Origin: a virus
Taxonomy: Duplodnaviria > Heunggongvirae > Uroviricota > Caudoviricetes
Strand: one strand, 5' to 3'
Virus record (IMG/VR): IMGVR_UViG_2645727901_000008
Length of the DNA: 64,000 nucleotides
Shown here: positions 13,124 to 54,259 of the stretch, piece after piece
Layout: each line of letters opens with the position of its first letter
How positions within the stretch are numbered: the first letter of the stretch is position 1
Notes under the pieces: generated by a model
What the model saw: the letters and a program-made list of their open reading frames with translations, nothing else
Told to the model about the DNA's origin: nothing
Database searches by the model: none
Position numbers and translations under genes: made by a program

Positions 13124-13267
13124 CTTGATCATTTTCTCGCTGAAGTGTATGTCAGGCTTAGCTCATAATCAAGTTGCTTCCAAGCTAAAAATGAGCTAGC
13201 TCCCTGAAACACTAAGAGCGGGGTGTTTCATTTATTAGCGTTGGGCCTGACGGTGTGTAGGTGAATT

Positions 13268-13555
13268 TTAGCTCATTACTCGATAACGACGGGGAATGGA
13301 ATTCTCCATCAGGCCACGAATTACTCCCGCCTCACGTAGTTCCTCTGTCTCCCAGTATCTGTTTGTCACCAGATCGAGGCTGGCTATGACCTTGTGCCGG
13401 TCATTCGGCATAGCTAATTTTTCTGCTATAACCATCAGTGAAAACTCTTCATCCAGTAGAATTTGATAGCAGTTTTTTGATAGTTCCACTTCCCTTATGA
13501 GACTGAAACGTCGCTGGATTGTGGCAGTAGAGTAAGTGAAATCTATTTTCTTCAT
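13268..13555 (-). CDS. Hypothetical protein, distal gene of immI-like module 1
   Basis: 95-aa ORF downstream of the antirepressor gene, after an intercistronic hairpin. Confidence 0.35.
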   Translation of the reverse strand: MKKIDFTYSTATIQRRFSLIREVELSKNCYQILLDEEFSLMVIAEKLAMPNDRHKVIASLDLVTNRYWETEELREAGVIRGLMENSIPRRYRVMS

Positions 13556-13587
13556 CGTGCGGAGAATCCGATTATTTAGCAGTTAAA

Positions 13588-13606
13588 GCCCCGGACAGGC
13601 CGGGGC
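13588..13606 (-). terminator. GC hairpin, homologous to the module-2 terminator but with a weak U-run
   Basis: GCCCCGG-N5-CCGGGGC. Same stem as 51537-51555. Confidence 0.35.
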
Positions 13607-13614
13607 AACAGTAA

Positions 13615-14541
13615 TTAACTAACAATCCAGTCCATAGCAACCATATCCTCTGGCGCTAAATCAATAGCATGGATTTTCCCATCCCGGATAGTGCGCCAGT
13701 GCTTCCTTGATCCGCCTTCGGGCCATACCCATACACCTTCAGACCATGAGGCGCGACGGCATACCGTTGCATATCCACTTCTGATCTTCTCTCTGGCGGT
13801 ATGCAGTGACAGATTATCTTTTGGGATTTCCGGTAAAGGATGATGGATTGCCTGAAACAGCCCCATCTTGGGATGATACCAGCGTTTGTTGCGTGGTTCT
13901 GCCTCCGACATAACCTGCTTGAAGGCTTTCTGGAAGGGGGCCAGGGCCACAATGGAGCGTCGCGCAAGCAAACCATCTGGAGTTAAAAACTCATGCGTAT
14001 CGGTGGGAATCCGGAAAGCGTTAACCAGGTTGCGACATTTGGCTTCGGTCAGGCCACATTTCGCCGCCAGCTGGCGGTAGCCAATGTAGCCTTCCGGAAT
14101 ATTGCCTTTCTTTATTTGCTCGAGTGTTTCAGCGACCATCGATACTTGTGCTGATACCTCGGCTACCTGGGCATTTACGGCGTTGATCCGGCGTTCATGC
14201 TCAAGATGCATTTGCGCCATTTCAGCCAGGATTTCGGCTTTTGATTTTAACTGTACCCGGGCATTCTCCAGTTCGCGCCAGCGGTCCACCAGCCGGGCGG
14301 TGAATTCGGGAGAGAGCTGCGCGACGACGACAATACTATCGCGCTTGCCTTGCTCGCCTTCGAAGACGTAATAGCTCGCCGGGCGGCCTGCGGTGGGCTT
14401 TTCCTCAATTTGAGGAAAAGATATTACGCCCCGTTCCGCCAGGTGTTCAATGGTGCGTTTAACGTTATCAGGGCGCTTACCTACCAGTTCCGCGATCTCA
14501 ATGCTGGTCATTGTCGCTTTTTGAGAGATGGACAGATTCAT
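13615..14541 (-). CDS. ant: Antirepressor-type protein (Rha/Ant N-terminal domain) fused to a C-terminal DUF2829-like domain
   Basis: MTSIEIAELVGKRPDNVKRTIEHL..GRPASYYVFEGEQGKRDSIVVVAQLSPEFTARLVDRWRELE (Rha-like). The C-terminus RRASWSEGVWVWP..DMVAMDWIVS parallels the separate 66-aa ORF at 51564. Occupies the P1 ant position after icd. Confidence 0.65.
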   Translation of the reverse strand: MNLSISQKATMTSIEIAELVGKRPDNVKRTIEHLAERGVISFPQIEEKPTAGRPASYYVFEGEQGKRDSIVVVAQLSPEFTARLVDRWRELENARVQLKSKAEILAEMAQMHLEHERRINAVNAQVAEVSAQVSMVAETLEQIKKGNIPEGYIGYRQLAAKCGLTEAKCRNLVNAFRIPTDTHEFLTPDGLLARRSIVALAPFQKAFKQVMSEAEPRNKRWYHPKMGLFQAIHHPLPEIPKDNLSLHTAREKIRSGYATVCRRASWSEGVWVWPEGGSRKHWRTIRDGKIHAIDLAPEDMVAMDWIVS

Positions 14542-14756
14542 CAGTGCGCCTCCACGCAGTTCATCGGCAGATTCCAGTAATTGAGGATCTCCATCGCATC
14601 AAGAGTGAAGCGAGCAGCAAAAATGCAGGGTTCTTCGGGAAGGTATGAGCGCGCCTCTGCTTCGGTAGCAGCCATGACGCAGATATACAGGTGTTTTTGG
14701 CAGGAATAGAAACGCCAGATAAATTCAGAATGAGTTGGGGTAGGGATAGTAGCCAT
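14541..14756 (-). CDS. icd: Icd-like small protein (cell-division-inhibitor family), module 1
   Basis: 71 aa, EFIWRF motif, paralogue of 52468-52692. TGATG coupling to ant. Its SD is covered by the b2 target of the c4-like RNA. Confidence 0.55.
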   Translation of the reverse strand: MATIPTPTHSEFIWRFYSCQKHLYICVMAATEAEARSYLPEEPCIFAARFTLDAMEILNYWNLPMNCVEAH

Positions 14757-14812
14757 ATTGGCAGCCTCCTTTGACTAAGTTAAGGAGCTACCGCGTGAGG
14801 TTCCAATCTCAA

Positions 14813-14892
14813 TGGCGGTAGCACTGACTGGGTTGGAACTACCGGCGTCAAAGGGAACCGGCCTGCCTTTCGGCAGCCCAGCCAGCACTACC
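14813..14892 (-). ncRNA. c4: c4-like antisense immunity RNA, module 1 (~77-80 nt)
   Basis: - 16-bp terminal helix GGUAGUGCUGGCUGGG / CCCAGUCAGUGCUACC, then GCCA.
- Internal CUGCC-GAAA-GGCAG hairpin.
- Loop CCUUUGAC and single-stranded GUUCCAA each have complements both upstream and downstream; the downstream copy overlaps the icd SD.
- Length fits the 77-nt P1 c4. Confidence 0.7.
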
Positions 14893-14941
14893 ATTGATCT
14901 CTGAGCTAAACGCTACGTATGGCTGTGCGATGGCATGACAC

Positions 14942-14963
14942 AAAAAAAGACGCTTTCGGCGTC
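14942..14963 (-). terminator. Hairpin plus U7 between the a1/b1 boxes and c4 (module 1)
   Basis: Minus strand: GACGC-CGAAA-GCGTC followed by TTTTTTT. Confidence 0.55.
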
Positions 14964-15068
14964 TGTGTCGCCTTTGACATTATCCGGGGTTCCAATCCCG
15001 GCACCCGTTTTTCTAAGGTGCCGTAGAAATATACCCCACGATAATGCCAGGGCGCAACAGTCAGTATT

Positions 15069-15236
15069 TTATGCTTTGGCGGATTTCTTCCGGGCTTGCT
15101 TGCAGGCGTAGGCCATTGCTTTAGCTTTCACTTCATCCAGCTTCCCGGTGATCGCTTCTTTTCCGAGAGTGACAAACCAGTCATAGCAACCGCCAGTGAT
15201 GTTCTGGATTTGAAAGTTGAGGTAGCGAACGGTCAT
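15069..15236 (-). CDS. Possible 55-aa ORF, coupled to a 29-aa ORF (15233-15322)
   Basis: Own translation: MTVRYLNFQIQNITGGCYDWFVTLGKEAITGKLDEVKAKAMAYACKQARKKSAKA. ATGA overlap with the upstream mini-ORF MNSYCLFPSLVVRHSRDNLHSLLALGVSK, which has an AAGGAG SD. Confidence 0.3.
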   Translation of the reverse strand: MTVRYLNFQIQNITGGCYDWFVTLGKEAITGKLDEVKAKAMAYACKQARKKSAKA

Positions 15237-15557
15237 TTTGACACCCCCAGCGCGAGTAAAGAATGCAGATTATCGCGTGAGTGGCGGACAACGAGTGATG
15301 GGAAAAGACAGTAGCTGTTCATAGTGTAGTGACTCCTTGCTTTCGGAGCCGCCATCGACTGTTCCACGGTCTGGTGGCGGCGCAATAAAGGCTGGAACAC
15401 CGTGAGTCAACGGGGGCTTTTCAGCCACCTATATTGCACCGCCATAGGTATAGCGGCGGCAATAATACGAAAAACTAAACAGTTTGTCTCAAAAAGTTGA
15501 CCGGTGTGCCAATCGGTAGTGAATGTACATCGGAGAAATTTACAATTCAACTTAAAA

Positions 15558-15574
15558 TGTTAGAAAACTAATTT
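15558..15574 (+). promoter_or_regulatory. 17-bp motif copy (candidate C1-type operator)
   Basis: TGTTAGAAAACTAATTT at the ref 3' end, upstream (on the minus strand) of the immI-1 leader. Minus-strand TTGAAT-17-TACATT lies just downstream. Confidence 0.45.
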
Positions 15575-16146
15575 ATCAATTCAATCGCCATCTGATACAA
15601 CGTCATTTCATCGGCATTGTGCCGCATGAAATCTGCTTTTCCGCCTATTTTTCCGTCAGCATGAACAGGGACCAGCCAGGGATATTGTTCTCGGACCTCG
15701 GCTGGCGCTGCGTACTGGTGGTGCCATTTACACAAAGGGAGGACATATTTATGCGCGTTCTCTGCCGTTCTCCCGAAGATATGGTGCAGGGATACTACTG
15801 GGCTATGTTGTCCGTGAATATGGCAGGCAATGCAGGGGAGAGTACCGATAGCGGTCTGTATCCGGCGTTCATCAGCTGTGAGTGATCTGCCCTTCAGGCC
15901 GCGTGACGTGCGTGTTTTTTTGGGCGGAGCGGATACAGCTTTATCTTTTCTCCGCTGTTCATATTGCTTTGCTTTTTCAATTTTCTTTTGCCGATATTCA
16001 GGCGATGCGGCTTTTTCTCTCGCTCGCTGCTGCTGGCGTTGAGCTTGTTGAAGGCGCTTTGCCCTTTGTTCCTCTCGCCAGGCCGGGTCAGCCAATTTTT
16101 GCATGGCTTTTTGTCTCTGTTTCTCCCAATAGCTCTGTTTCTGCAT
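15568..16146 (-). CDS. ref: Ref recombination-enhancement nuclease (HNH-type, RecA-dependent in P1)
   Basis: Basic N-terminus plus RGLKGR..ADERRI..LPCIACHIHG..SLHHI.GRT..LPLCKWHHQYAAPAEVREQYPWLVPVHADG, which closely matches P1 Ref as I recall it. Confidence 0.85.
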   Translation of the reverse strand: MQKQSYWEKQRQKAMQKLADPAWREEQRAKRLQQAQRQQQRAREKAASPEYRQKKIEKAKQYEQRRKDKAVSAPPKKTRTSRGLKGRSLTADERRIQTAIGTLPCIACHIHGQHSPVVSLHHIFGRTAENAHKYVLPLCKWHHQYAAPAEVREQYPWLVPVHADGKIGGKADFMRHNADEMTLYQMAIELIN

Positions 16147-16194: not shown

Positions 16195-16224
16195 TGTTAG
16201 ATATTCAAAATTGATTTTCTAACA
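16195..16224. promoter_or_regulatory. Bivalent motif (candidate operator) overlapping a plus-strand sigma70-like promoter, between ref and the early operon
   Basis: TGTTAGA-N16-TCTAACA. TTGATT (16211-16216), 16 nt, TAATAT (16233-16238). Confidence 0.55.
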
Positions 16225-19530: not shown

Positions 19531-19560
19531 CGTTAGAACATTGATTTTAGTTTTCTAACA
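19531..19560. promoter_or_regulatory. Bivalent motif (candidate operator) upstream of the DUF968 gene
   Basis: CGTTAGA-N16-TCTAACA. TTGATT is embedded in the spacer, as at 16195. Confidence 0.5.
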
Positions 19561-30478: not shown

Positions 30479-30495
30479 TGTTAGAAATTTAATTT
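30479..30495 (+). promoter_or_regulatory. 17-bp motif copy (candidate operator)
   Basis: TGTTAGAAATTTAATTT overlapping the recombinase stop, about 60 nt upstream of the 30420 start. Confidence 0.45.
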
Positions 30496-31522
30496 ATGAA
30501 TCCATCAGGCGGCTATTAGCCCCCACAGACACGCCGCCACGGCGCAGATACCGCATAAGTGTTTCCGGTTTCTTCCAGGTTCCTTCCTGCATGATCTCCA
30601 CCATAGACACCTGCTTTTCAGCCATATCGATAGCGGCCCCGACACGAGCACTATGCCCGGTCCACGTCCGGTATCTCCCTTTGTTTGGCGTGGCATCTCT
30701 TTTATTCAGCAACACCCAGGCGTCGCTGAATATTTTCTCCATTGCAGGTGCAGTAAGGGGAGTTGTCGTAATCCTGGCCTTATTGCTACGGTGTATCGGC
30801 GGGAACAGCACCGCGTCAGGATGTTCACGAAGCCCGGAAACATCCAGCCAGTCATTCAGCACTGCGGTAGTGCGACGGGAAAGCACCTTATCAAGCCCGG
30901 CGGCGGTCGTTATTGTCTTCGTGTGTGAAATATGTAGCGTGACAGTGTCACCTGTTTGGTCCAGATCTCCTACACGAATACGCGAGATTTCAGACATTCG
31001 CATCAGCGTATTGTATGCAACGAAGAGGAAAGCCCGGTTACGCAGGTCCACCAGCCGTTCTGACCTGGACAACAGGACGTCGAGCAGTTTCAGATCGTCC
31101 CACCGCAGCGGTATAGCCTGGCCTGTTCGTTCGCCTTTTTCCGTTGCCGCTTCGCGCCGGATGCGCCGCATAGCCAGAGAAACACTTTTATCATCCGAAA
31201 GTGGCGGAAGGCCACAATGCGAAAGCAGCATGTTAAGCATGGCGTAGTGCTTATCAATGGTGGTCGAAGCCAGATCAGCATCATGCAGCTGAAGAAAATA
31301 CTCGCGGGCCATCTCTGGTGAGATCGGGAACCAAGCGAGCTGGCGAGCGTGGCACCATCGCGCCCAGGAGTGAAACACTAACCGGAGATCGCGCAAAGTA
31401 TTCGGCGCGTAAGCCCCCTGGTCATTCATGAACCGCATAAAGTTTTCTGCGGCCTCCTGGTACTCTTTGCCAATGTTGCGCAGAAAACCACCGGAGCTGC
31501 CAGAGATAATTAATTCACTCAT
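30494..31522 (-). CDS. dre: Cre-family tyrosine recombinase; sequence recognised as Dre (phage D6)
   Basis: MSELIISGSSGGFLRNIGKEYQEAAENFMRF.. matches Dre as I remember it. Colinear with P1 Cre (SLAMRRIRRE, AYNTLMRMSEISRIRVGD, GHSARVGAAIDMA, catalytic Tyr in LMRYL). Confidence 0.85.
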   Translation of the reverse strand: MSELIISGSSGGFLRNIGKEYQEAAENFMRFMNDQGAYAPNTLRDLRLVFHSWARWCHARQLAWFPISPEMAREYFLQLHDADLASTTIDKHYAMLNMLLSHCGLPPLSDDKSVSLAMRRIRREAATEKGERTGQAIPLRWDDLKLLDVLLSRSERLVDLRNRAFLFVAYNTLMRMSEISRIRVGDLDQTGDTVTLHISHTKTITTAAGLDKVLSRRTTAVLNDWLDVSGLREHPDAVLFPPIHRSNKARITTTPLTAPAMEKIFSDAWVLLNKRDATPNKGRYRTWTGHSARVGAAIDMAEKQVSMVEIMQEGTWKKPETLMRYLRRGGVSVGANSRLMDS

Positions 31523-44054: not shown

Positions 44055-47000
44055 TTAGGCCGCATCGGCGATTATTTTACGCAATTCATCTACCGAGTAA
44101 CGCGTAGATACCATCCATGCAGGACGGTCAAAGTTCACATCAGCAACCGGGTTTGCTTCAAAATTCCAGAAACGCCCGCCAATCTTCTTAATCGCGTCTT
44201 TGGCGTTCCGTATTGTCGAGGAACCAGGTTGGTCGGCAATGAGATAAACCGCACCGACGTCCTCGCTGACACTCCACCAGCGCCCGCGAACACGCGCCTT
44301 AGCGCGAATCGGCTTATCATTAACCACAATGATATAGTCATCATTCGCCGCTTCATCAGCTCTGGCTTCAGCCACTGCCGCCTGCTCTTCTCTTTTGCTT
44401 TCAGCCTGTTCAAGCCTTTCCGCGATCTCTGATTCGGTGGCCCCGCCGTTTTTCAGCGATACATAGTCTTGCCACGTTGCTGATTTGAGCGCATCCGGCA
44501 ACTCATTCACATAGTCACCGTCTTTCAACTCACGGGCGCGGCGGGTAGCCATTTCTACCAGGCGATTAACAGAAACAGCATCAGCAAAATCGTCCTTACT
44601 AATGTGTTTTTCATCAAATGCATTGATGACAGCCCCCACCTTAATCCACTGCGCTGCTGGCGAATCCAGAGGATTATCGGCCTGAACAATGGCTAATTTC
44701 GCTCCATCGACACCATTATTAGCCAGCTGCTCCAATGCCGACCAGCCATCGGCATCGCTGAGTGATTTATATTGCTCAAACAATGCATCGCGCCAGGCCA
44801 CCAGCGCAGCTCGTGTTTTCTCAATTTTCGCCGTAATTTTCGCGGCCTTCACCTGATTAAACATCCGTTCAATGTCATCAGTGTTGCTAAAGGCTTTCAT
44901 CCTGCCCTGGAATAAACGGTATGCCACCACGGTCTTCCAGAAAGATTCCAGCCCTTCTCCGGACGGTTTACGGAACAGGCTAAGAATATCTTCAGAAGTA
45001 ACTTTATTAAGTGAGCGACCGGACAAACCACGCCCTGCCATCCAGTTTTCAAACTCCTGGGAAACATCATCCATCGTGGCCTGTGACCCCCATGCCTGCA
45101 TTCCCTGGATGTAATCATATCCATACAATGCCTGGAGGAATCCCTCGCCGTCCACGACATTCAGCGGGTTATCACTGGCTTGTATTTTTGCCACTTCACG
45201 CTTCAGCGCCTCATCGTTGCCATCAGGGTAAATCCACCGCTCAGGCGCTATATCCGATGCTCGCCCGATTTTTTGACCTATTACGCCATCATAAGCCGAT
45301 GACAGTGCAATCTGACCATCATCGGTGCGATAAGCCCAGTATTTAATAGCTGAACCACCGCCCCATACTCTACTAGGCTTCCCGGCAGTGACATTCATTA
45401 CCCCATTGCGAATAGCATCATAGAACTGATCGCGCGTAAGTGTTGTTGATAGCTGGTGGCATTGAACACCACGTGCAGCTGTTTCACGCGATTCTGCAAC
45501 TCCCTCTTCAAAGGTTACCGATTCAATTATCAGGTTAAAGGGCAAAAATAATGCCGTCCCCGGAGAACGAGAGTAACGACTAGCCACATCCAGCCAGGAT
45601 ATGCGGCACGTACACCCGCCCCTTTCCGCATCAATGGCGGTAACACGAACAATTGCTGTCGTATTGTGATTCTCATCGATGATCGCGCGATAATGGCTGC
45701 CCTTGTGCAACAAGATATTTTTCTCAGTGCGTACATACTCCTGTGGGTTCTGCAATACATCGGCATCAAGCTCCAGAACCCCGGCTTTAATCGCACGTTC
45801 CAGATCACCACGAGAACGTTTCATAACGGTGTCAGCGTCTTTAGCTCTGGTGATCGCAAAGCGTAGCTCCCGCACACGTTTTCTGTAGTCTCGCAACTGT
45901 TCCAGAACATATTTCTGCCCGTTCCTGTTCGTCCCCGCTTTAATCAGGTCGTCAAGATTGCGCTGGTAATGCTCTACCTGCTCCATCGCGCTTTTCAGTT
46001 CTGTCTCCATCATGCCGATATCTTTCCCGGCAGCATTCGCCGCTTTCAGGTAGTTATCGAGAGCATTATTGGCTTCGCGTAGGGCTTTCAGTTTCAGACG
46101 TTCTTCACGCTCTTGCGCCTGACGACTCATGATTGCACGGCGTTCTTCCGGATTTGCCGCCAGCATAATGGCGCGTTCATCTGCGTCATCCGCATCACCA
46201 TTGGCGATCTCTGACATGTCGGAGGTCATCACCATATTGATCCAGTCCTTCTTACGTTTCAGCGTATCCAGACGGAAGTCATCAAATGTGCCTTTGCCAC
46301 AATAGTAGTGAACATTGACCTTTTCTTGTGGTGAGCCTACCCGAGCGCCGCGCCCATTACGTTGGTCGATACTGGCAGGAGTCCAGGGTAGTGTCAGATG
46401 GTGGATATCGGTTGTCCCGATGTGCAAGTTAATACCTACTTCAGCCTTCTTGTTACAGATTATGATGCGCGTGCGACCTTCGTTATAGTCGGCGGCAATA
46501 CCTTCCATGCCCTCAAGGCCAGCATCATTTTTAGCTGAGAGATAATCCTCATATTGGGCAAGTTTGCTGTAGTAGGTTTCCCATGCACCTTCTTTGTATT
46601 CACCGTTTTTATTTGGCGTAGGTTCAGTCGGCTTATTCACCTTCTTCAGCTTGACGCCGCCAGCCTGGCTAACTGTCGTCGCATTGATAATGCCTATCTC
46701 CTGCTCCGGCATTTGCAGTGCACTGGCAATAATACGGCGCAGCTTCTGGTGCTGGGCTTTTTCATCAATGAAGACGATTTGTTTACCGTTCTTCAGACCT
46801 TCACGAAGGTTTTCGATCAGCGCGGCATACTTCGGCGGGATGGGGTGTGATACCTGCTGCATATCAATACCGGCAGCCGCAATGGCCTTCAGTATTTCAG
46901 CTTCCAGTTCAATGCCAGCACGTATTTCAACATGCGACGGATGTTCGCTAAAGGTGGTCTTCACTACCTTGCTGGCACGCGTACTGACCAGCCCACCAGC

Positions 47001-50000
47001 GCCATCTTCTTCGGCCTCGTCTACATCATCTGCCACTTTACCGCCAGCTACTTTTGGCAGGGCATCAGCAATAGCTTTTACCTTGTCTGCAAGCTCAACG
47101 GGGAACTGGAATGTAATCGCACTGGCATACAGATCAGGATCTATAGCAACCTTATCCATGTCGCGGATGATGGAGAAGATGAAATCATCCGGTTTTTCGT
47201 TTGTGATATGCCCGTTTTCATCGACCGTCAGCGCATCTTTACTACTTAACTCCTGTGCACGCTTACGAAGTTCTTCGTAAATGGCCTCTTGCTCTCCTGT
47301 CATCGGGATCTGCAAGGTATTCTCGACAATATCAGGGATTTTTACCGTCGCCCCGACGTCCGCAGCAGTCTTCAGAGTAGTCCAGCGATGGAAAATACCA
47401 CGCAGACCATCCAGGTTCTGGAAGCCCACCAGTCCCTGCTTCTCTTCCACCTCACCGGAAATTTTCTGAACCTGAACTGTGGCTGTTTTACCGAACACGC
47501 GAACGAAATCATCCGGCGTAACAATACCCATGCGCATCCACTCTTCCTGCGGAATGACAGTAGACAGCATGTTGAAAGCATCAATCGGGCTGTTCACCAG
47601 CGGTGTTGCCGTCAGCATAACCACACCACGCCCGTTGTTGCGTTTCATCATGTACGCAGCTTTTACAGCCATGTCGCGGGCCATTTTGGATACTGCCGGG
47701 TTAGGCAAATATGCCAGTTGCCCCGCTTCGCGCCCGGCGCTAAAGGAGTTGCGGTAGTTATGCCCTTCGTCGGCAATTACGCTATCGAAGTTCATATCCT
47801 CAAAGTACGGGATATTCTGCTTCTTCGTTGTACCGGTATTTGCGGCCTGGTCCTTAATCTTGTTCTTCTTCTGCGCGTCACGGTGTTTGCCAGATGCCAG
47901 GTCAAGACGCCCCATTTCCACAGCATTAAAGACCGCTTGCTGTGAGTTTTCCTCAATGGTTTCTTCTCGTAGCGGGATAGACGCGAATTGCTCTTTTGTC
48001 ATGATGACCGTTCGCCAATTTGACGACGGGATCATGTTCATGCGCTGAACGATAACGGCGCTGGCGGACTCTTTCACAACATTTCTGGTAAGAGCCTGCC
48101 CGTTACTGTCGAGGCGTGGTTCGCCATTTTCATCAAGCACCGGCGCGGTCAGAATATTTCCGCTGTCATCACGAACTTCATCCAAACCGATAAACATCAT
48201 ATTGGCGAAGGCATCAGAACTGTAGAAACTCTGTGCCTCGTGATACCAGTTCTGATAAACCGCCTTCGGAACAACAATACACGTGCGTTTAGTGCGACCT
48301 GTTTCGAAGTTATACGCCTCAAGCGCAAGCGCGGTCGTGGTTTTACCCAGCCCGGTGCCAAATCCCATGATGCCGCGCCCATCTTCTGATAAGCGACGAA
48401 CTTCTTCATTCTGATAAGTCAGAGGAATGCGCTTCCCACTAATCCCCTCCAGGCCAAGCGGTGCGTCAGAATGCGTAAACGGGATGAAGCCATTAAATGC
48501 GTCGTTATAGTCGCGGGCTATCTGATCAGCCTGCGGGTGAGTGCGTAACCAGTCGTTGAAGCTAATTTCCAGTTGAGCAATCTTATCCAGGTACTCGTTA
48601 GCGTTCTGCCCACGCGGTTTAATGCCGTTCAGGTAGTTTTCTAACTGGTTCAGGAAGCCGTCTTTATTGTTGGCCTTCTTGAACTCATTCCCGTTTTTGC
48701 CGTTTACGGTTCGTAGTTGATAGCCAGTAAATACCCCGTCCTTACCTTCGTAATCGTCCGGAGATACCAGAATGCCGTCCTCAACCTTAAGGTCGGGTTC
48801 TGTATACTTAAACTCGTCATAGCCCTGCTCTGCCAGGAACTCTTTTATCAAGCGGCGATCCAGCCAGCGGGCGTTCAGATTAACGGTGACTTTATTTAGT
48901 GGCGTGAAAATGCGTTTCTCTTCGATTTTCGCCAACTGACGCTCAAAGTTCGCTTTCTGCTCACCTGTTGACGCATCACGCCAGCCCACCAGCAATGCTG
49001 TTTTGGTTGCAATATCGCCGCTGGTGGCGCGGTCCATCGGCAGCAGGCAGCCATACCCATCAATAGCGATATCATCAAATTTCGCCAGGTATTCCAGAGC
49101 AGCATCGTCGTCTCCTGGCAGTTCGCCAGCAAACGCCTCACGAAAATCGTCCAGTGTGATTGGATTAAGTGCCACGTCACTGAAAAGGTGGGTTACAACT
49201 TGTTCCGGGCGTGTAAAGTCAATACCGGCAGCACCATCCGTTACATCAAGTCGTCCAGCAAGGAGGTCAGAAGCAGAGCCGTCCTGTTTCACGTTGCCAG
49301 TGAAAGTCATCCAGTTTTTAGCGCCAGCTTCAGCAATCCCATTCAGCTTAATCGCGTGCGGCGGACCATACTTCGCAATTTCGGCTTCCGCCAGGCGCGC
49401 GGCATCAGCAAGTACATCATCAACATTTTCCCCCAGATTACGCTTATCAAGCGCCTTGTTGATCAACTGCCCTATCAGTGCGCCGCGCATAACGCGTTCT
49501 CTGTCTTTTTCTCTCTGCTTGCCAGCAAAGCGAATCATTGCCGCTACTTCATCACTGATAACCGATGGATAGTCGGACGCGATCGCCGATATCTGGTCCC
49601 ATGACAACGCCAGAATGCCATTTGTTGACTGAAACGCGATCTGCAGATCACCAAACGTCGTAACACCATATCGATTTACATCAAGCGCGGAGGATTTGGT
49701 TGTCGCGTCCTTGACCCATTTCAGACCATCAAACTCATGCCAGATGCCGCCTACAAGGCGTTTATCGCCCACTTTCGCGCCCTGCCATGCCTGAGTAGTT
49801 ACGCCAAGCAAATCCCAATTAATGCGGCTTTCAAAGCGGCGCGATAGAGCGGTTTTCATCGACTCATTGGATACACGACCGTCCTTTTTCACCACCAGGG
49901 TATTGCGGAAGCTGGTACGCTCCATATCGCCGTAAACAAATCGCTTCCCTTCGGTTGTAAACCATTTTCCTTTGAGGAAGGTATCCCAAAGGACGTTTGC

Positions 50001-50894
50001 CGATTTGAGCGTTGCATCATCCGTGTCGGGGATCATCTCCAGGAAGGTTTCCGGGTGTTTACGCAATACCCATACGTCCACCACGGTATCTGTACCGGAT
50101 TCGCTGAACGTACCAGAAGGCATACGATGTGCGCCCAAAAATTCCGCTTTACGGCTGACTTTATCGCGCAATTTTTTGTATTTCGTACCATCGGTCATGC
50201 CATTCGGCACCACCAATACAATTAGTCCACCAGGTTTAACCTTGTCGATCGTGCGCAACACAAAGTAATTGCCAACGTTCTTCTCGTTTGCATATGCCGG
50301 ATCAAGCCCGGCAACGCCGGAACGCCCTTCACCAAACGGTACGTTACCAACAGCGTGGTCATACATTGCGTCTTTCGCCGCCAGCGCCTCAAACGCCCCG
50401 ATATTCACATCGTCTTCCGGGTGCAAAAGCTGGTTTATTCGACCGGAAATCGGAGACAGTTCGGCGCTGGTCATTATCATGCCCTGCCGTTTTGTCTCCT
50501 GGAAAATACCTGTGCCCGCTGATGGTTCCAGTACGTGCCCACCATCAATACCGTAGTCAGCAAACAGATCCCATATACCTTCAGCCATAAACTGTGGCGT
50601 GTAGTATTCGTATTGGCTGCCCTCACCATCTGTCAGGCCGCCTTCACCGGTATACCCGGCAAGAATCTGACGTTGTTCGTCAGTTAATTTCGCCCCATCG
50701 AAGCCGGGCGGAAGGGAATTAAGAAGATTTACTGCGGCATTGTTTGCTGCCCGGCGTGTTTTCTGAATACTGACGCCATCGGCTTTCCTGACGCCAAAGG
50801 TCGCAACAGCACGTAATTTATGCAACCGACTAACAATTTCAATCAGTTCGCCTAAGCTGGAGGCTTCACTGATTGAATGAAGTAGTTTGTCCAA
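44055..50894 (-). CDS. darB: DarB-like antirestriction protein (N6-methyltransferase plus helicase fusion)
   Basis: 2279 aa (I recall P1 DarB as ~2255 aa). GNVPFG methylase motif IV. Helicase motif I GFGTGLGKTTTALAL and motif II VIADEGHNYRN. Confidence 0.8.
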   Translation of the reverse strand: MDKLLHSISEASSLGELIEIVSRLHKLRAVATFGVRKADGVSIQKTRRAANNAAVNLLNSLPPGFDGAKLTDEQRQILAGYTGEGGLTDGEGSQYEYYTPQFMAEGIWDLFADYGIDGGHVLEPSAGTGIFQETKRQGMIMTSAELSPISGRINQLLHPEDDVNIGAFEALAAKDAMYDHAVGNVPFGEGRSGVAGLDPAYANEKNVGNYFVLRTIDKVKPGGLIVLVVPNGMTDGTKYKKLRDKVSRKAEFLGAHRMPSGTFSESGTDTVVDVWVLRKHPETFLEMIPDTDDATLKSANVLWDTFLKGKWFTTEGKRFVYGDMERTSFRNTLVVKKDGRVSNESMKTALSRRFESRINWDLLGVTTQAWQGAKVGDKRLVGGIWHEFDGLKWVKDATTKSSALDVNRYGVTTFGDLQIAFQSTNGILALSWDQISAIASDYPSVISDEVAAMIRFAGKQREKDRERVMRGALIGQLINKALDKRNLGENVDDVLADAARLAEAEIAKYGPPHAIKLNGIAEAGAKNWMTFTGNVKQDGSASDLLAGRLDVTDGAAGIDFTRPEQVVTHLFSDVALNPITLDDFREAFAGELPGDDDAALEYLAKFDDIAIDGYGCLLPMDRATSGDIATKTALLVGWRDASTGEQKANFERQLAKIEEKRIFTPLNKVTVNLNARWLDRRLIKEFLAEQGYDEFKYTEPDLKVEDGILVSPDDYEGKDGVFTGYQLRTVNGKNGNEFKKANNKDGFLNQLENYLNGIKPRGQNANEYLDKIAQLEISFNDWLRTHPQADQIARDYNDAFNGFIPFTHSDAPLGLEGISGKRIPLTYQNEEVRRLSEDGRGIMGFGTGLGKTTTALALEAYNFETGRTKRTCIVVPKAVYQNWYHEAQSFYSSDAFANMMFIGLDEVRDDSGNILTAPVLDENGEPRLDSNGQALTRNVVKESASAVIVQRMNMIPSSNWRTVIMTKEQFASIPLREETIEENSQQAVFNAVEMGRLDLASGKHRDAQKKNKIKDQAANTGTTKKQNIPYFEDMNFDSVIADEGHNYRNSFSAGREAGQLAYLPNPAVSKMARDMAVKAAYMMKRNNGRGVVMLTATPLVNSPIDAFNMLSTVIPQEEWMRMGIVTPDDFVRVFGKTATVQVQKISGEVEEKQGLVGFQNLDGLRGIFHRWTTLKTAADVGATVKIPDIVENTLQIPMTGEQEAIYEELRKRAQELSSKDALTVDENGHITNEKPDDFIFSIIRDMDKVAIDPDLYASAITFQFPVELADKVKAIADALPKVAGGKVADDVDEAEEDGAGGLVSTRASKVVKTTFSEHPSHVEIRAGIELEAEILKAIAAAGIDMQQVSHPIPPKYAALIENLREGLKNGKQIVFIDEKAQHQKLRRIIASALQMPEQEIGIINATTVSQAGGVKLKKVNKPTEPTPNKNGEYKEGAWETYYSKLAQYEDYLSAKNDAGLEGMEGIAADYNEGRTRIIICNKKAEVGINLHIGTTDIHHLTLPWTPASIDQRNGRGARVGSPQEKVNVHYYCGKGTFDDFRLDTLKRKKDWINMVMTSDMSEIANGDADDADERAIMLAANPEERRAIMSRQAQEREERLKLKALREANNALDNYLKAANAAGKDIGMMETELKSAMEQVEHYQRNLDDLIKAGTNRNGQKYVLEQLRDYRKRVRELRFAITRAKDADTVMKRSRGDLERAIKAGVLELDADVLQNPQEYVRTEKNILLHKGSHYRAIIDENHNTTAIVRVTAIDAERGGCTCRISWLDVASRYSRSPGTALFLPFNLIIESVTFEEGVAESRETAARGVQCHQLSTTLTRDQFYDAIRNGVMNVTAGKPSRVWGGGSAIKYWAYRTDDGQIALSSAYDGVIGQKIGRASDIAPERWIYPDGNDEALKREVAKIQASDNPLNVVDGEGFLQALYGYDYIQGMQAWGSQATMDDVSQEFENWMAGRGLSGRSLNKVTSEDILSLFRKPSGEGLESFWKTVVAYRLFQGRMKAFSNTDDIERMFNQVKAAKITAKIEKTRAALVAWRDALFEQYKSLSDADGWSALEQLANNGVDGAKLAIVQADNPLDSPAAQWIKVGAVINAFDEKHISKDDFADAVSVNRLVEMATRRARELKDGDYVNELPDALKSATWQDYVSLKNGGATESEIAERLEQAESKREEQAAVAEARADEAANDDYIIVVNDKPIRAKARVRGRWWSVSEDVGAVYLIADQPGSSTIRNAKDAIKKIGGRFWNFEANPVADVNFDRPAWMVSTRYSVDELRKIIADAA

Positions 50895-51045: not shown

Positions 51046-51531
51046 ATGGCAAACATTGAACCTCGCTGGCTAATTGAAGCCCGTAAGCACATTGGCCTGA
51101 CTGAAATAAAAGGCGCTAAACACAACCCTGAAATCGTTCAGTTCTGGCGCGACATCAAGCGCGGCGGAATTAAAGACGATGAAACGCCGTGGTGCGCAGC
51201 ATTTGTCGGTGCAATGCTGGAACGTGTAGGCATCCGCTCAACAAGATTTGAGTCGGCAAAATCCTATCTGGATTGGGGCGAGAAATTAGATACACCGGCA
51301 TACGGATGTATCGTTGTATTTACCCGCGTAGGCGGTGGGCACGTAGGCTTCGTTGTCGGACGCCGTGCCAATGGCGATCTGCTTGTCCTGGGTGGGAACC
51401 AGGGGGATGCTGTTAATATTCGCGCATTCCCAACATCAAGAGTGTCTGGCTATCGCTGGCCTGCTGGCGAACCACGCAATACCGCTCTGTTACCAGTCGG
51501 AGACGCAGCAACCTCAACTAATGAGGCATGA
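51046..51531 (+). CDS. Putative cell-wall hydrolase (TIGR02594 / CHAP-NlpC-like)
   Basis: GAKHNPEIVQFW..DDETPWCAAFVGAML..GGHVGFVVG, the catalytic Cys/His layout I associate with TIGR02594. Confidence 0.5.
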   Translation: MANIEPRWLIEARKHIGLTEIKGAKHNPEIVQFWRDIKRGGIKDDETPWCAAFVGAMLERVGIRSTRFESAKSYLDWGEKLDTPAYGCIVVFTRVGGGHVGFVVGRRANGDLLVLGGNQGDAVNIRAFPTSRVSGYRWPAGEPRNTALLPVGDAATSTNEA

Positions 51532-51555
51532 AAAAAGCCCCGGCCAGGCCGGGGC
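51532..51555 (-). terminator. Intrinsic terminator of immI-like module 2
   Basis: Minus strand: GCCCCGG-CCTGG-CCGGGGC followed by TTTTT. Confidence 0.6.
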
Positions 51556-51563
51556 ATCACGCT

Positions 51564-51764
51564 TCAATTCACGATCCAATCATTACCGACTATATCAGCC
51601 GTCGATAAATCAACTTCCCGGATCTGGAGTCCATTAATACAAAACCATCCGGTAGTAGAGTAATTATCAGGCCAGGCCCATACACCAACACTCCATGCTT
51701 TACGGCGGCACACTTCAGCCTGTCCTTCCCTGATTTTTTTTACCGCCTGCATGATGTCCATCAC
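51564..51764 (-). CDS. Stand-alone DUF2829-like protein
   Basis: 66 aa: EVCRRKAWSVGVWAWP..STADIVGNDWIVN. Equivalent to the C-terminal domain fused to the module-1 antirepressor. Confidence 0.45.
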   Translation of the reverse strand: MMDIMQAVKKIREGQAEVCRRKAWSVGVWAWPDNYSTTGWFCINGLQIREVDLSTADIVGNDWIVN

Positions 51765-52468
51765 TCACCTCCCCAACCGATCACCTGGAATTGCCCCATT
51801 TTGGGGTGATACCAGCGTTTTCCTCGGTGTTCAGCCTCCGACATCATCCGGTTAAAAGCATTCATGAAGGGAGATAAGGCCACGATGGAACGACGCGACA
51901 ATACCCCCTCTGGAGTTAAAAACTCATGTGTATCGGTGGGGATCCGGTAAGCGTTAACCAGGTTGCGACATTTGGCTTCGGTCAGGCCGCATTTTGCCGC
52001 CAGCTGGCGGTAGCCAATGTAACCTTCCGGCATGTTGCCCTTCTTGATTTGCTCGACGGTTTCTACCACCTGGCTAACCTTTGACTCAACAACATGAAGC
52101 CGCTTTTGCTGCTGAACTGCATTTGCAGCCATTGCGGCGATCATCTCTATTTCGGTCAACGGCTGGCGTGCTTGTTCTTCCAGTTCGCGCCAGCGGTCCA
52201 CCAGCCGGGCGGTGAATTCGGGAGAGAGCTGCGCGACGACGATAATGCTATCGCGCTTGCCTTGCTCGCCTTCGAAGACGTAAGCCTCAACACTACGTCG
52301 TAGTCCTAAGTTATTGATTTTTTCGAAAACCTCAATTTGAGGACGAACAATAACGCCACCTTTGTCTAATGTCTCAATAGTGCGTTTCACATTGTCATGA
52401 CGTTTTCCCACCAGCTCCGCGATCTCAATGCTGGTCATTGATGGCTTTTCGAGAATGCAGATATCCAT
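51761..52468 (-). CDS. ant: Antirepressor-type protein (Rha/Ant family), module 2
   Basis: MTSIEIAELVGKRHDNVKRTIETL..YVFEGEQGKRDSIIVVAQLSPEFTARLVDRWRELE. The central and C-terminal parts are near-identical to 13615-14541. Confidence 0.65.
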   Translation of the reverse strand: MDICILEKPSMTSIEIAELVGKRHDNVKRTIETLDKGGVIVRPQIEVFEKINNLGLRRSVEAYVFEGEQGKRDSIIVVAQLSPEFTARLVDRWRELEEQARQPLTEIEMIAAMAANAVQQQKRLHVVESKVSQVVETVEQIKKGNMPEGYIGYRQLAAKCGLTEAKCRNLVNAYRIPTDTHEFLTPEGVLSRRSIVALSPFMNAFNRMMSEAEHRGKRWYHPKMGQFQVIGWGGE

Positions 52469-52692
52469 CAGTGAGCCTCCGCAATGCCGGGATTGGTAAT
52501 ATTGCGATACCAGGGATTGGTGTTTGGTTGTGGGGAAGTGGAGAAACGACCAGTGAGAACGCCATACTGATCAGGGATCAGAGAACGGGCTTCTTTTTCA
52601 GTTGCGGCAATTGCGAAGTGATCGCAGTGTTTTTGCAGGGAGTGAAAACGCCAGATGAATTCTGGACGTGAGCAAGGATTGGCATTAACCAT
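52468..52692 (-). CDS. icd: Icd-like small protein, module 2
   Basis: 74 aa, EFIWRF motif, ends AEAH like its paralogue (VEAH). TGATG coupling to ant. Confidence 0.55.
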   Translation of the reverse strand: MVNANPCSRPEFIWRFHSLQKHCDHFAIAATEKEARSLIPDQYGVLTGRFSTSPQPNTNPWYRNITNPGIAEAH

Positions 52693-52740
52693 AGTTACGG
52701 CCTCACTAACAGGTTTAACAACCTGCTACCCGCTGCTAAA

Positions 52741-52819
52741 CAGGTGGCAGGACGTGACGGGGTTAGCAGACTGGCGTTAGTGAAACCAGCAGGCCGAAGC
52801 CTCCCCATCACGCCCCACC
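52741..52819 (-). ncRNA. c4: c4-like antisense immunity RNA, module 2 (~77 nt)
   Basis: Same architecture as module 1: terminal helix GGUGG..GCGUGAUGGGG / CCCCGUCACGU..CCACC, a GGC-UUCG-GCC hairpin, loop CACUAAC and single-stranded CUGCUAA. Each has complements upstream (52888, 52902) and downstream (52704 over the SD, 52733). Confidence 0.65.
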
Positions 52820-52851
52820 ATAATTTGGGCGTAACGCGGTTTTACGGACAC

Positions 52852-52880
52852 AAAAATACCGCAATATCGGATATCTGCGG
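52852..52880 (-). terminator. Hairpin plus U-run between the a1/b1 boxes and c4 (module 2)
   Basis: Minus strand: CCGCA..TGCGG followed by TATTTTTG. Positional equivalent of 14942-14963. Confidence 0.4.
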
Positions 52881-53022
52881 TTGTCCGCACTAACATTCAG
52901 GCTGCTAAACCCGGTCGCAGAATTTGCTACGACGACATGAATATAAGCCTGAAAACATGGAAGATCAACTAAAAATTTCAGCAATAGATGACTTCAGTCG
53001 ATGATGCAGATCATACATTCCG

Positions 53023-53052
53023 ATTTAGAAACGGCAAATTAATTTTCTAACA
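53023..53052. promoter_or_regulatory. Bivalent motif (candidate operator) upstream of immI-like module 2
   Basis: ATTTAGA-N16-TCTAACA. The minus-strand half is the exact consensus TGTTAGAAAATTAATTT. This is the position of P1 Op51. Confidence 0.5.
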
Positions 53053-53106
53053 CAAAATGTCGAGCGAGCATTTTCCGATCATTGGGATGTTTTGTAGACG
53101 CACAGG

Positions 53107-54069
53107 TCACCCCCTAAAGCCAGCCGGGATTGACCAATCCTCACGGTCAAATTCAGACCGATAGCCACGCTGTTTCATCAGGTCAAAGGCTTCACCAATG
53201 GTTGCACACCCCTGGGAGCCAGAATAATCCATTGAGAAATCCAGGGCACTGGATTGTTTAGGCTTATTCACTGCGGTAGCGGCACTACGTATCCATGCAA
53301 ATTTTTTTGCCAGCTTTTCAGCGGTACGATACAGAGCCTGCCGTTTTGTGTGCCCCTCGTCTGAACGACGCTTTGCAGCTCTCGCTTTTGCCGCCGCCAG
53401 GCAGTGGTTGGTCTGTTCTTCCCTGATTACTGTTTTTTTATCCAGCACCCCGTTATCCGTTTGAGAACTATCTGCTGGTGAAGCCTTTGGCTGAACCGCG
53501 CATGATCTTTCTCTTCTTTTGGCTATAGAGTGACTCTTATTTTCTATTGGCTGTTCATTTTGAACATGGGGGGACTTGTTCAATTTGAACAGGGGGTTCC
53601 CAGTTTCAAAAAAATAACGAACCTTTGAAATCAACTGCTTAACCAGTTTTGTGGCGTTGGCAAATTTGATGCCCTGCTTACCCCCTATCTCCATTGCTAC
53701 ATGAATGAAGTGGAGAAATTGTGTCGTAAACCGATATACGTTACACACCTGGGCATTGTTATTCGCTACCTGATGTTGCTTAACAAGCATTCCGCACTTC
53801 GTCGCTTCAGCAAATGCCCGGCGTACAGTAGAAATACTGCGTCCTGTAATCTCGGACATATCAGCATATGAGCGACGGATCATGTATTCATCGGTAGACC
53901 CTGCCAGGTTGGCGAACTCGGCAATAATGGCGCTATGTGAAGGGGAAAGAAGACCGCTATGACGAGCAAAAAAACTCAACTGATGACCTTTGATTTTTTT
54001 GTGGTATTCAGTGTTGTTTTTATACTCAGAAGTGTTGAAAGTTACTGAAACTGAATTTAAAATATTCAT
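53107..54069 (-). CDS. Putative winged-helix DNA-binding protein (possibly RepL-like replication/regulatory protein)
   Basis: wHTH-like segment MIRRSYADMSEITGRSISTVRRAFAEATKCGMLV, then a basic low-complexity centre. Confidence 0.3.
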   Translation of the reverse strand: MNILNSVSVTFNTSEYKNNTEYHKKIKGHQLSFFARHSGLLSPSHSAIIAEFANLAGSTDEYMIRRSYADMSEITGRSISTVRRAFAEATKCGMLVKQHQVANNNAQVCNVYRFTTQFLHFIHVAMEIGGKQGIKFANATKLVKQLISKVRYFFETGNPLFKLNKSPHVQNEQPIENKSHSIAKRRERSCAVQPKASPADSSQTDNGVLDKKTVIREEQTNHCLAAAKARAAKRRSDEGHTKRQALYRTAEKLAKKFAWIRSAATAVNKPKQSSALDFSMDYSGSQGCATIGEAFDLMKQRGYRSEFDREDWSIPAGFRG

Positions 54070-54242: not shown

Positions 54243-54259
54243 TGTTAGAAATTTAATTT
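54243..54259 (+). promoter_or_regulatory. 17-bp motif copy
   Basis: TGTTAGAAATTTAATTT, preceded by the palindrome AGTGTATATAAATACACT. Confidence 0.45.

Follow-up and report, generated by a model that had tools for sequence, protein, structure and literature searches.

The stretch of viral DNA analyzed here (64,000 nucleotides of IMG/VR record IMGVR_UViG_2645727901_000008, Caudoviricetes; hereafter the window) carries two modules in which a small RNA of the c4 type precedes an icd-like gene and a gene for an "Ant" protein, module 1 at 13615-15021 and module 2 at 51537-53052 on the minus strand, and this raises the question of whether they are two independent switches or two copies of one. An original prediction, made from the letters alone, had read module 2 as a second immI-like copy of identical architecture and different antisense specificity, each module guarding its own antirepressor. 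We consider it highly probable that the window holds two c4-gated cassettes with independently acting RNAs, that module 2 is the canonical immI operon, and that the pair is the standard layout of D6-like elements. Module 2 can be assigned as the P1/P7-type immI operon of the window, and module 1, to judge by its sequence, is a second complete cassette, whose C4 RNA is of another lineage and whose leader is of the isrK type. Both belong to a well-described system whose known mechanism is left unchanged, and their predicted elements are almost certainly functional.

Throughout its length, 51400-53200 shares 93.8% identity with Escherichia phage D6, and for the module 1 region (13200-15300) the figure is 95.4%, against another locus of D6; both modules lie at the same genome positions in D6 (NC_050154) as in the window. 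We identify the window as a D6-like element within the P1 phage-plasmid family, D6 being a P1-related plasmid prophage. The D6 record annotates orf19/orf18/orf17 as Icd-like, "anti-repressor Ant" and hypothetical, adjoining repL, and orf83/orf82 as Icd-like and Ant, near ref and a simB-like gene. No RNA gene, the c4 RNAs included, is annotated at the place of either module in that record, and the gain in annotation for the window consists of two c4 RNA genes that had no annotation, the leaders and targets that go with them, and a D6-type operator motif.

An Rfam scan of the whole window at gathering thresholds (C4, RF01695, 45 bits; c4-a1b1, RF03163, 46.7 bits; isrK, RF01394, 50 bits) returned exactly two C4 RNAs, one in each module. 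By sequence inspection, every element predicted for module 2 was found in its place on the minus strand (Table 1), and the P1 annotation, projected through an alignment with P1, P7, and D6, reproduces a1, b1, a2, and b2 exactly. The predicted RNA of about 77 nt is indeed c4; its span, first drawn as 52741-52819 (79 nt), becomes 52743-52819 by projection. Its b' box, CACUAAC, lies in the loop of hairpin 2 and its a' box, CUGCUAA, in a single-stranded joint, and only a' and one compensating stem position differ from P1 c4. The minimum free energy (MFE) folds of the two c4 RNAs follow the common plan that had been proposed for them, with a long helix closing the ends, a hairpin capped by a UUCG or GAAA tetraloop, b' in the loop of the second hairpin, and a' unpaired, the two boxes being placed in the same way in the Rfam structures. 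Taken together, these matches go well beyond what chance would give. In both modules, a' and b' are exact 7-8 nt complements of their targets, b2 abuts or overlaps the Shine-Dalgarno sequence, and a second target pair, a1/b1, lies upstream of c4 in the leader. The P1 record itself labels the role of a1/b1 "putative".

Table 1 Features of the two modules and of the presumed repressor system, with positions in the window.
Feature	Position	Strand	Basis or remark
Module 2: operator-like 17-mer TGTTAGAAAATTAATTT, perfect copy	53036-53052	-	overlaps the -35 of the upstream promoter-like site
Module 2: weak inverted second half-site	53023-53039	+	9/15 core positions match
Module 2: promoter-like site TTGCCG-16-TATGAT	53010-53037	-	consensus scan; positional analogue of P1 P2c4 (P51a)
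Module 2: promoter TTGATC-17-TATATT	52940-52968	-	consensus scan; aligns with annotated -35/-10; orthologue of P1 P1c4 (P51b)
Module 2: leader with a1 and b1	52887-52946	-	RF03163 at 52894-52946, 51.5 bits; P1 mapping
Module 2: a1 UUAGCAG	52902-52908	-	sequence and P1 projection
Module 2: b1 GUUAGUG[C]	52887-52894 (GUUAGUG 52888-52894)	-	sequence and P1 projection
Module 2: leader hairpin then U-run (attenuator or terminator of short leader RNA)	52852-52880	-	sequence; helix in leader MFE fold
Module 2: C4 Rfam match	52740-52825	-	RF01695, 70.0 bits
Module 2: c4 antisense RNA, 77 nt	52743-52819	-	P1 GenBank features projected through the alignment
Module 2: target region a2 and b2	52703-52739	-	b2 overlaps the GAGG Shine-Dalgarno of icd
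Module 2: a2 UUAGCAG	52733-52739	-	sequence and P1 projection
Module 2: b2 GUUAGUG	52703-52710 (GUUAGUG 52704-52710)	-	AGG directly after; icd ATG 52690-52692
Module 2: icd-like gene, 74 aa	52468-52692	-	NCBIfam NF033153 phage_ICD_like, E=3e-10
Module 2: Rha/Roi-type "Ant" gene, 235 aa	51761-52468	-	Pfam Phage_pRha, E=6e-9; phrog_63 "anti-repressor Ant", 5e-48
Module 2: small open reading frame	51564-51761	-	65 aa from ATG (66 aa from GTG at 51764); phrog_7385, 7e-49
Module 2: intrinsic terminator closing the operon	51537-51555	-	8 G-C pairs then TTTTTT
Module 1: isrK-type leader	14943-15021	-	Rfam isrK RF01394, 62.7 bits
Module 1: a1 UUGGAAC	14989-14995	-	
Module 1: b1 GUCAAAGG	14971-14978	-	
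Module 1: intrinsic terminator in leader	14948-14964	-	terminator scan
Module 1: C4 RNA	14811-14898	-	Rfam C4, 77.1 bits; b' CCUUUGAC in loop, a' GUUCCAA unpaired
Module 1: targets a2 (14800-14806) and b2 (14768-14775)	14768-14806	-	b2 over the AAGGAGG Shine-Dalgarno of icd
Module 1: icd-like gene, 71 aa	14541-14756	-	NF033153, E=3e-13
Module 1: Rha/Roi-type Ant gene, 308 aa	13615-14541	-	N-terminal Phage_pRha; phrog_63, 2e-62; small domain fused C-terminally
Distant C1-type repressor gene, 345 aa	31907-32944	+	tblastn with RCS47 C1: 19.5% over 241 aa, E=3e-6
Further operator-like sites	15558-15574, 16208-16224, 19531-19560, 30479-30495, 36310-36326, 54243-54259		window scan

The recognition sequences of the two modules were expected to be entirely different, and they are, with no overlap between them. 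At the seed level, cognate duplexes within a module reach -8.5 to -12.7 kcal/mol (-8.5 for a and -10.1 for b in module 2), whereas duplexes between modules range from +0.2 to -2.9 kcal/mol. The non-cognate duplexes of P1 against P7, taken as a reference, lie at -1.7 to -3.6 kcal/mol. Discrimination between the modules is thus predicted to be at least equal to that between P1 and P7, and the two c4 RNAs should act independently and not cross-react. Seed-level energies were used because duplex folding of the full-length c4 with its target unfolds c4 and is uninformative (cognate -39, non-cognate -34).

Module 2 proved not to be a derived "second" copy. P1 features map onto it one-to-one, which makes it the orthologue of the canonical P1/P7 immI c4-icd region, and 52581-52953 is 88-92% identical to that region in P1, P7, and many P1-like phages (about 91% for P1/P7). 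This likeness begins at the P51b-type promoter, spans c4, and reaches ~110 nt into icd; the similarity to P1 ends upstream of ~52975 and downstream of ~52581. The order a1, b1, c4 (b', a'), a2, b2 is the same, b2 lies over the icd ribosome-binding site, and the icd stop overlaps the next start; a putative operator overlaps the upstream promoter-like site, where P1 has Op51. The window differs from P1/P7 in that its specificity is a hybrid, with a as in P7 and b as in P1, that the gene after icd is of the Rha/Roi type and not a KilAC-domain Ant1/2, that repL lies upstream of the operon (downstream in P1), and that the putative operator is of a D6 type and not ATTGCTCTAATAAATTT.

P1 and P7 are reported to be heteroimmune through a few base differences (PMC6906374). 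In the alignment of P1, P7, D6, and the window, differences are almost confined to the recognition boxes, and all three copies change together in each phage. The alleles are a UUGACAG and b GUUAGUG in P1, a UUAGCAG and b GAUUGUG in P7, a UUGACAG and b ACUUACG in module 2 of D6, and a UUAGCAG (P7 type) and b GUUAGUG (P1 type) in module 2 of the window; module 1 of D6 has a UUGAGAC and b GCAAAAGG. D6 and the window hence carry the same two modules at the same positions with different recognition alleles in both.

When the two modules of the window were aligned with each other, likeness was confined to ant (14553-13851 against 52480-51784, 75%) and to the 3' end and terminator region (74%), and the leader and c4 parts gave no nucleotide alignment. 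This mosaic, together with the likeness to P1/P7 within 52581-52953 only, fits the earlier suggestion that one module was captured by recombination with a relative. The "identical architecture" does not hold in full: the leader of module 1 is of the isrK type, its Ant includes the small domain as a fusion, and no operator motif adjoins the module. Close copies of module 1 are present in D6 and also in the P1-like RCS47 and JL22, where they sit between pacB and c1, and the recognition alleles of these RCS47, JL22, and D6 copies differ and co-vary. In PLSDB plasmids matching 14750-15050 (e.g., NZ_AP018804.1 and NZ_CP104667.1), PGAP places an "ash family protein" coding sequence across leader and c4; what is annotated there as a protein is probably an RNA gene.

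The same covariation was found in a wider sample. When IMG/VR was scanned for exact matches to the invariant core of P1-type c4, at least 120 loci were obtained, the frequencies reported here being those of samples. Among the matches listed, 117 of the 118 P1-type modules with six readable boxes are perfectly complementary for a1/a'/a2 and b1/b'/b2, and two a and six b alleles occur in at least 11 of 12 combinations; the combination of module 2 of the window is found in at least 11 other IMG/VR contigs. A scan for the isrK-type core gave 71 loci, with 72 of 74 modules perfectly matched; two a and two b alleles occur here, and each of the four possible combinations is represented. Among the matches listed, no a or b allele is common to the two lineages. 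The D6-like modules alone account for five module-2 and three module-1 combinations. That the three-site complementarity is kept despite this allele turnover requires selection on pairing, and, because the sites follow the order a1-b1-b'-a'-a2-b2, a single crossover cannot produce an a/b hybrid, for which at least three are needed. The sole mismatch among the 118 (IMGVR_UViG_2565956613_000015, around position 119, minus strand; locus L045) has b2 GUUAGUG against b'/b1 of the ACGAAUG type; a single crossover between a2 and b2 is its probable origin, and repression of this module is predicted to be only half effective. A foreign a1 is found in two modules of the isrK type.

The presence of two modules is not special to this prophage: D6 annotates both icd/ant pairs, and most D6-like PLSDB plasmids appear to carry both. 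A second c4/icd region was already noted in the D6-like plasmid pYU39_89 in 2019 (PMC6799933), and an extra ant insertion between pacB and c1 has been described in P1-like plasmids (PMC6906374). In PLSDB, 575 plasmids have a module-2-like c4 region and 344 a module-1-like region; the D6-specific ant2 and ant1 regions each match ~115 records at ~1.9 places per record, the value to be expected were both paralogues present in most plasmids of the D6 type. At least 13 of the 32 IMG/VR contigs of 80 kb or more carry both lineages and at least 4 of the 32 carry two to four P1-type modules, and the P1-like RCS47, JL22, and many IMG/VR contigs have two to four modules each. Two orthogonal cassettes are therefore a standard, already noted configuration of D6-like elements.

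Stacking is also seen in three phage-plasmid contigs of ~97-103 kb in which each module has a different a/b combination: IMGVR_UViG_2703718869_000013 (P1-type modules L019, L054, L102, and L123), IMGVR_UViG_651053023_000001 (L016, L079, and L106), and IMGVR_UViG_2713896909_000009 (L069, L095, and L124, plus an isrK-type module). An avoidance of identical alleles among co-resident modules was considered and dropped: 16 of 16 were distinct in six contigs, but random draws gave this in 12% of cases (P ~0.12), which is not significant.

By analogy with P1, two promoters would give a single module-2 transcript, the upstream one under a D6-type C1 operator and the downstream one being the P51b orthologue. 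This transcript would run through the leader with the decoy a1/b1 and the attenuator hairpin, the 77-nt c4, a2/b2, icd, "ant", and the 65-amino-acid open reading frame to the terminator. c4 would be cut out of it by RNase P processing and would pair through b' and a' with b2 and a2, occluding the ribosome-binding site of icd, and this block would silence the downstream genes by translational coupling and polarity, because those genes are translationally coupled. The P1/P7 c4/icd/ant mechanism was reportedly established by Citron and Schuster in 1990 and in later papers from the Schuster laboratory. It is summarised in PMC8198154, and immI is also treated in PMC6906374. Our analysis reads the sequence elements, their family membership, complementarity and covariation, mosaic boundaries, and distribution directly from the DNA; RNase P processing, translational repression with polarity, binding of C1 to the motif, and antirepressor activity we infer from P1/P7 biology.

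The P4 CI RNA with seqA-seqC and the N15 CA RNA are likewise small processed RNAs that pair with repeated short sites in the leader of their own operon, and they act mainly by transcription termination, shutting off downstream anti-immunity or early genes. They share the structural RNA class of the c4 modules and are unlike them in the termination mode and the downstream genes. P4 CI and seqA have been recognized as relatives of C4 and isrK (PMC10111431).

For module 1, a known parallel is the isrK-orf45-anrP locus of Salmonella Gifsy-1, where the read-through isoform is translated upon activation in trans by a short leader RNA that ends at a terminator, and which controls AnrP and then AntQ, not a lysogeny repressor (PMC4825925). 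Both have an isrK-family leader and the arrangement of a short terminated leader RNA and a read-through mRNA, and the small upstream open reading frame is coupled to an antirepressor-like gene (AUGA/UGAUG) in Gifsy-1 as in the window. Unlike Gifsy-1, the window has a full C4 RNA and an Icd-like open reading frame between leader and ant, and the Gifsy-1 work describes activation by a short RNA and not c4-type repression (PMC4825925). By analogy with IsrK, the a1/b1 leader could serve as a decoy for c4. Conversely, Gifsy-1 may have a C4-type RNA of its own in the stable, processed ~80-nt "orf45'" species (STnc1160) encoded downstream of IsrK; in that case IsrK would play the part of an a1/b1 decoy within a c4 system, a role framed otherwise in PMC4825925.

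Upstream of c4, the original prediction had placed a bivalent 17-bp motif, of which one perfect copy stood up, the inverted partner matching at 9 of 15 core positions only. Its geometry, with a 4-bp overlap, is that of the clear bivalent pair at 19531-19560. The asymmetric 17-mer TGTTAGAAAAYTAATTT is repeated at 14 sites within 2178-54259; with its 15-mer core TTAGAAAATTAATTT, the window has 14 sites at three mismatches or fewer against 3.6 expected (~fourfold), a number reached in 0 of 100 shuffles, and the sites are usually preceded by TG. Copies lie upstream of c4, repL (54243-54259), a ref-like gene (16208-16224), and the c1-like gene (31588 and 31881). No match to the P1 operator consensus ATTGCTCTAATAAATTT was found in the window at three mismatches or fewer, and the putative operator here is a different 17-mer. 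Because its distribution mirrors the P1 C1 regulon, we read the motif as a putative and probable D6-type C1 operator. The C1-like protein would be its binder and, if the Ants are antirepressors, their presumed target.

A gene for a Cre-like tyrosine recombinase (30494-31522, minus strand) adjoins the C1-like gene. Immediately upstream of c4, and on its strand, is a repL-like lytic replication gene (53107-54069, minus strand) that has an operator-like site of its own, the reverse of the P1 order c4-icd-ant-kilA-repL. No terminator was called in the interval from this gene to c4, so that transcripts of a derepressed repL could extend into the immI operon.

The Icd of module 2 is 61% identical to P1 Icd and 45% identical to the Icd of module 1. 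In both modules, a UGAUG overlap that allows for translational coupling joins icd to the next gene, and in module 2 such overlaps chain icd, ant, and the small open reading frame, followed by the terminator that had been proposed there. The Ant proteins, described as largely identical, share only 67% identity over 237 amino acids, with near-identical blocks. P1 Ant1 and KilA carry the KilAC domain (PF03374) and the window Ants carry Phage_pRha, so that, judged by whether the controlled gene is a KilAC-domain Ant1/2, the window Ants fall outside the P1 group. Since the proteins encoded downstream lack homology to P1 Ant1/2, the switch may have another output than in P1, and the antirepressor label follows from the family annotation. 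Each cassette may guard its own antirepressor, as P1/P7 biology would suggest. The further idea of dual, independently triggerable induction circuits is speculative, and the absence of homology between these Ants and P1 Ant weakens it.

The small open reading frame is 45% identical to amino acids 244-308 of the module 1 Ant (Ant1), that is, to its C-terminal domain (13615-13809). This domain is rich in cysteine and tryptophan, with an invariant C-R-R...W...G.W.P...D....DW pattern, and two large protein searches gave three and seven relatives (the seven among 1.84 billion representatives). It had been called DUF2829-like, yet PF11195 matches at 14.9 bits (E=0.04), under the 25-bit cut-off. DUF2829/Tad2 matches occur in four of six family members (best E=6.2e-5). 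As the Pfam signal is sub-threshold and has no fold support, an identity with Tad2 (Thoeris anti-defence)/DUF2829 is not established: a Foldseek search with the AlphaFold2 model (pLDDT 66) gave no PDB match at E<=0.001, and a profile search against PDB sequences was empty.

Several observations weigh against the reading of two working c4-gated cassettes, of which module 2 is the C1-controlled immI operon. The leader hairpin of module 2 received no call in a strict terminator scan, the second operator half-site is weak, and neither Ant of the window shows similarity to P1 Ant1 or KilA (BLASTP E >= 0.3). No operator motif lies within ~500 bp of module 1, for which the promoter scan made no call and only a weak -35 (TTGCGC) can be seen by eye; a C1-controlled promoter feeding this module was sought at 15380-15640, and nothing convincing was found. 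Such gaps around module 1, and the mosaic in which ant and the 3' end alone are common to the modules, are what would be expected if a single module worked and the other were a decaying or silent passenger gained by recombination. This is very improbable: each module is complete from one end to the other, each C4 RNA exceeds the Rfam cut-off by a wide margin, most D6-like plasmids retain both modules, and the three-site complementarity of both lineages is kept across dozens of relatives despite allele turnover.

It is possible, if on the whole unlikely, that the switches are c4-gated as proposed but that their output is something other than antirepression of the resident C1, with the Rha/Roi-type proteins and the small domain directed at transcription of other phage genes (as Gifsy-1 AnrP at antQ), at co-resident prophages, or at host defence or takeover, in which case the two modules would not be redundant "induction triggers". 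The Phage_pRha Ants, unrelated to the KilAC-domain P1 Ant1 and KilA, point this way, as do the isrK-family leader of module 1, whose Gifsy-1 counterpart controls no lysogeny repressor (PMC4825925), the variety of genes downstream of both c4-icd lineages, and the weak Tad2-like signal in four of six small-protein relatives. Yet the best profile match of both Ants is phrog_63 (5e-48 and 2e-62), whose annotation reads anti-repressor Ant, position and control mimic P1 immI exactly, and the Tad2 link falls under the Pfam cut-off without fold support. The modules might also talk to each other, through leader RNAs acting as sponges for the c4 of the other module or through partial pairing; short IsrK of Gifsy-1 acts in trans on its own long isoform (PMC4825925), so that leader RNAs can be diffusible regulators, and Ants that are 67% identical could share a protein target and thus couple the outputs. 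With the best inter-module seed duplex at only -2.9 kcal/mol and the alleles of the two lineages never coinciding among the matches listed, we find such cross-talk improbable.

Across P1-family elements, both c4-icd lineages front at least four different downstream genes: those of P1 Ant1, an RCS47-type 370-amino-acid protein, and the Ant1 and Ant2 types of the window. We tentatively propose, as a doubtful extension, that P1/D6 phage-plasmids run a combinatorial "two-key" RNA barcode, in which a and b alleles are reshuffled under diversifying selection and two to four stacked orthogonal cassettes each gate a different Ant-like effector. If this were true, the c4 allele set of a resident would decide which anti-immunity genes of incoming relatives are silenced, and the result would be multi-lock superimmunity and a competition network and not a single secondary immunity locus. 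The survey suggests that at least 11 specificities of the P1 type and 4 of the isrK type exist, and that a genome can hold several orthogonal cassettes. As c4 alleles define mutual immunity among P1-family elements, this repertoire bears on coexistence, exclusion, and mutual induction among these phage-plasmids, which are widespread and often carry resistance, and the cassettes form a ready natural set of orthogonal RNA repressors. Combinatorial alleles and cassette stacking are a modest extension of P1/P7 heteroimmunity. A search for literature on c4 allele diversity in phage-plasmids, in which the D6 genome paper (Gilcrease and Casjens, 2018) was not covered, found nothing beyond PMC6799933 and PMC6906374, and the combinatorial repertoire and the stacking are the sole parts for which no description was found in the literature searched.

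Downstream of module 2 lie a gene for a DarB-like helicase/methyltransferase of 2279 amino acids (44055-50894, minus strand) and one for a CHAP-domain peptidoglycan hydrolase of 161 amino acids (51046-51531, plus strand). Four tRNA genes are clustered at 37765-39613 (minus strand; Rfam 42-72 bits) and are the sole other Rfam matches in the window.

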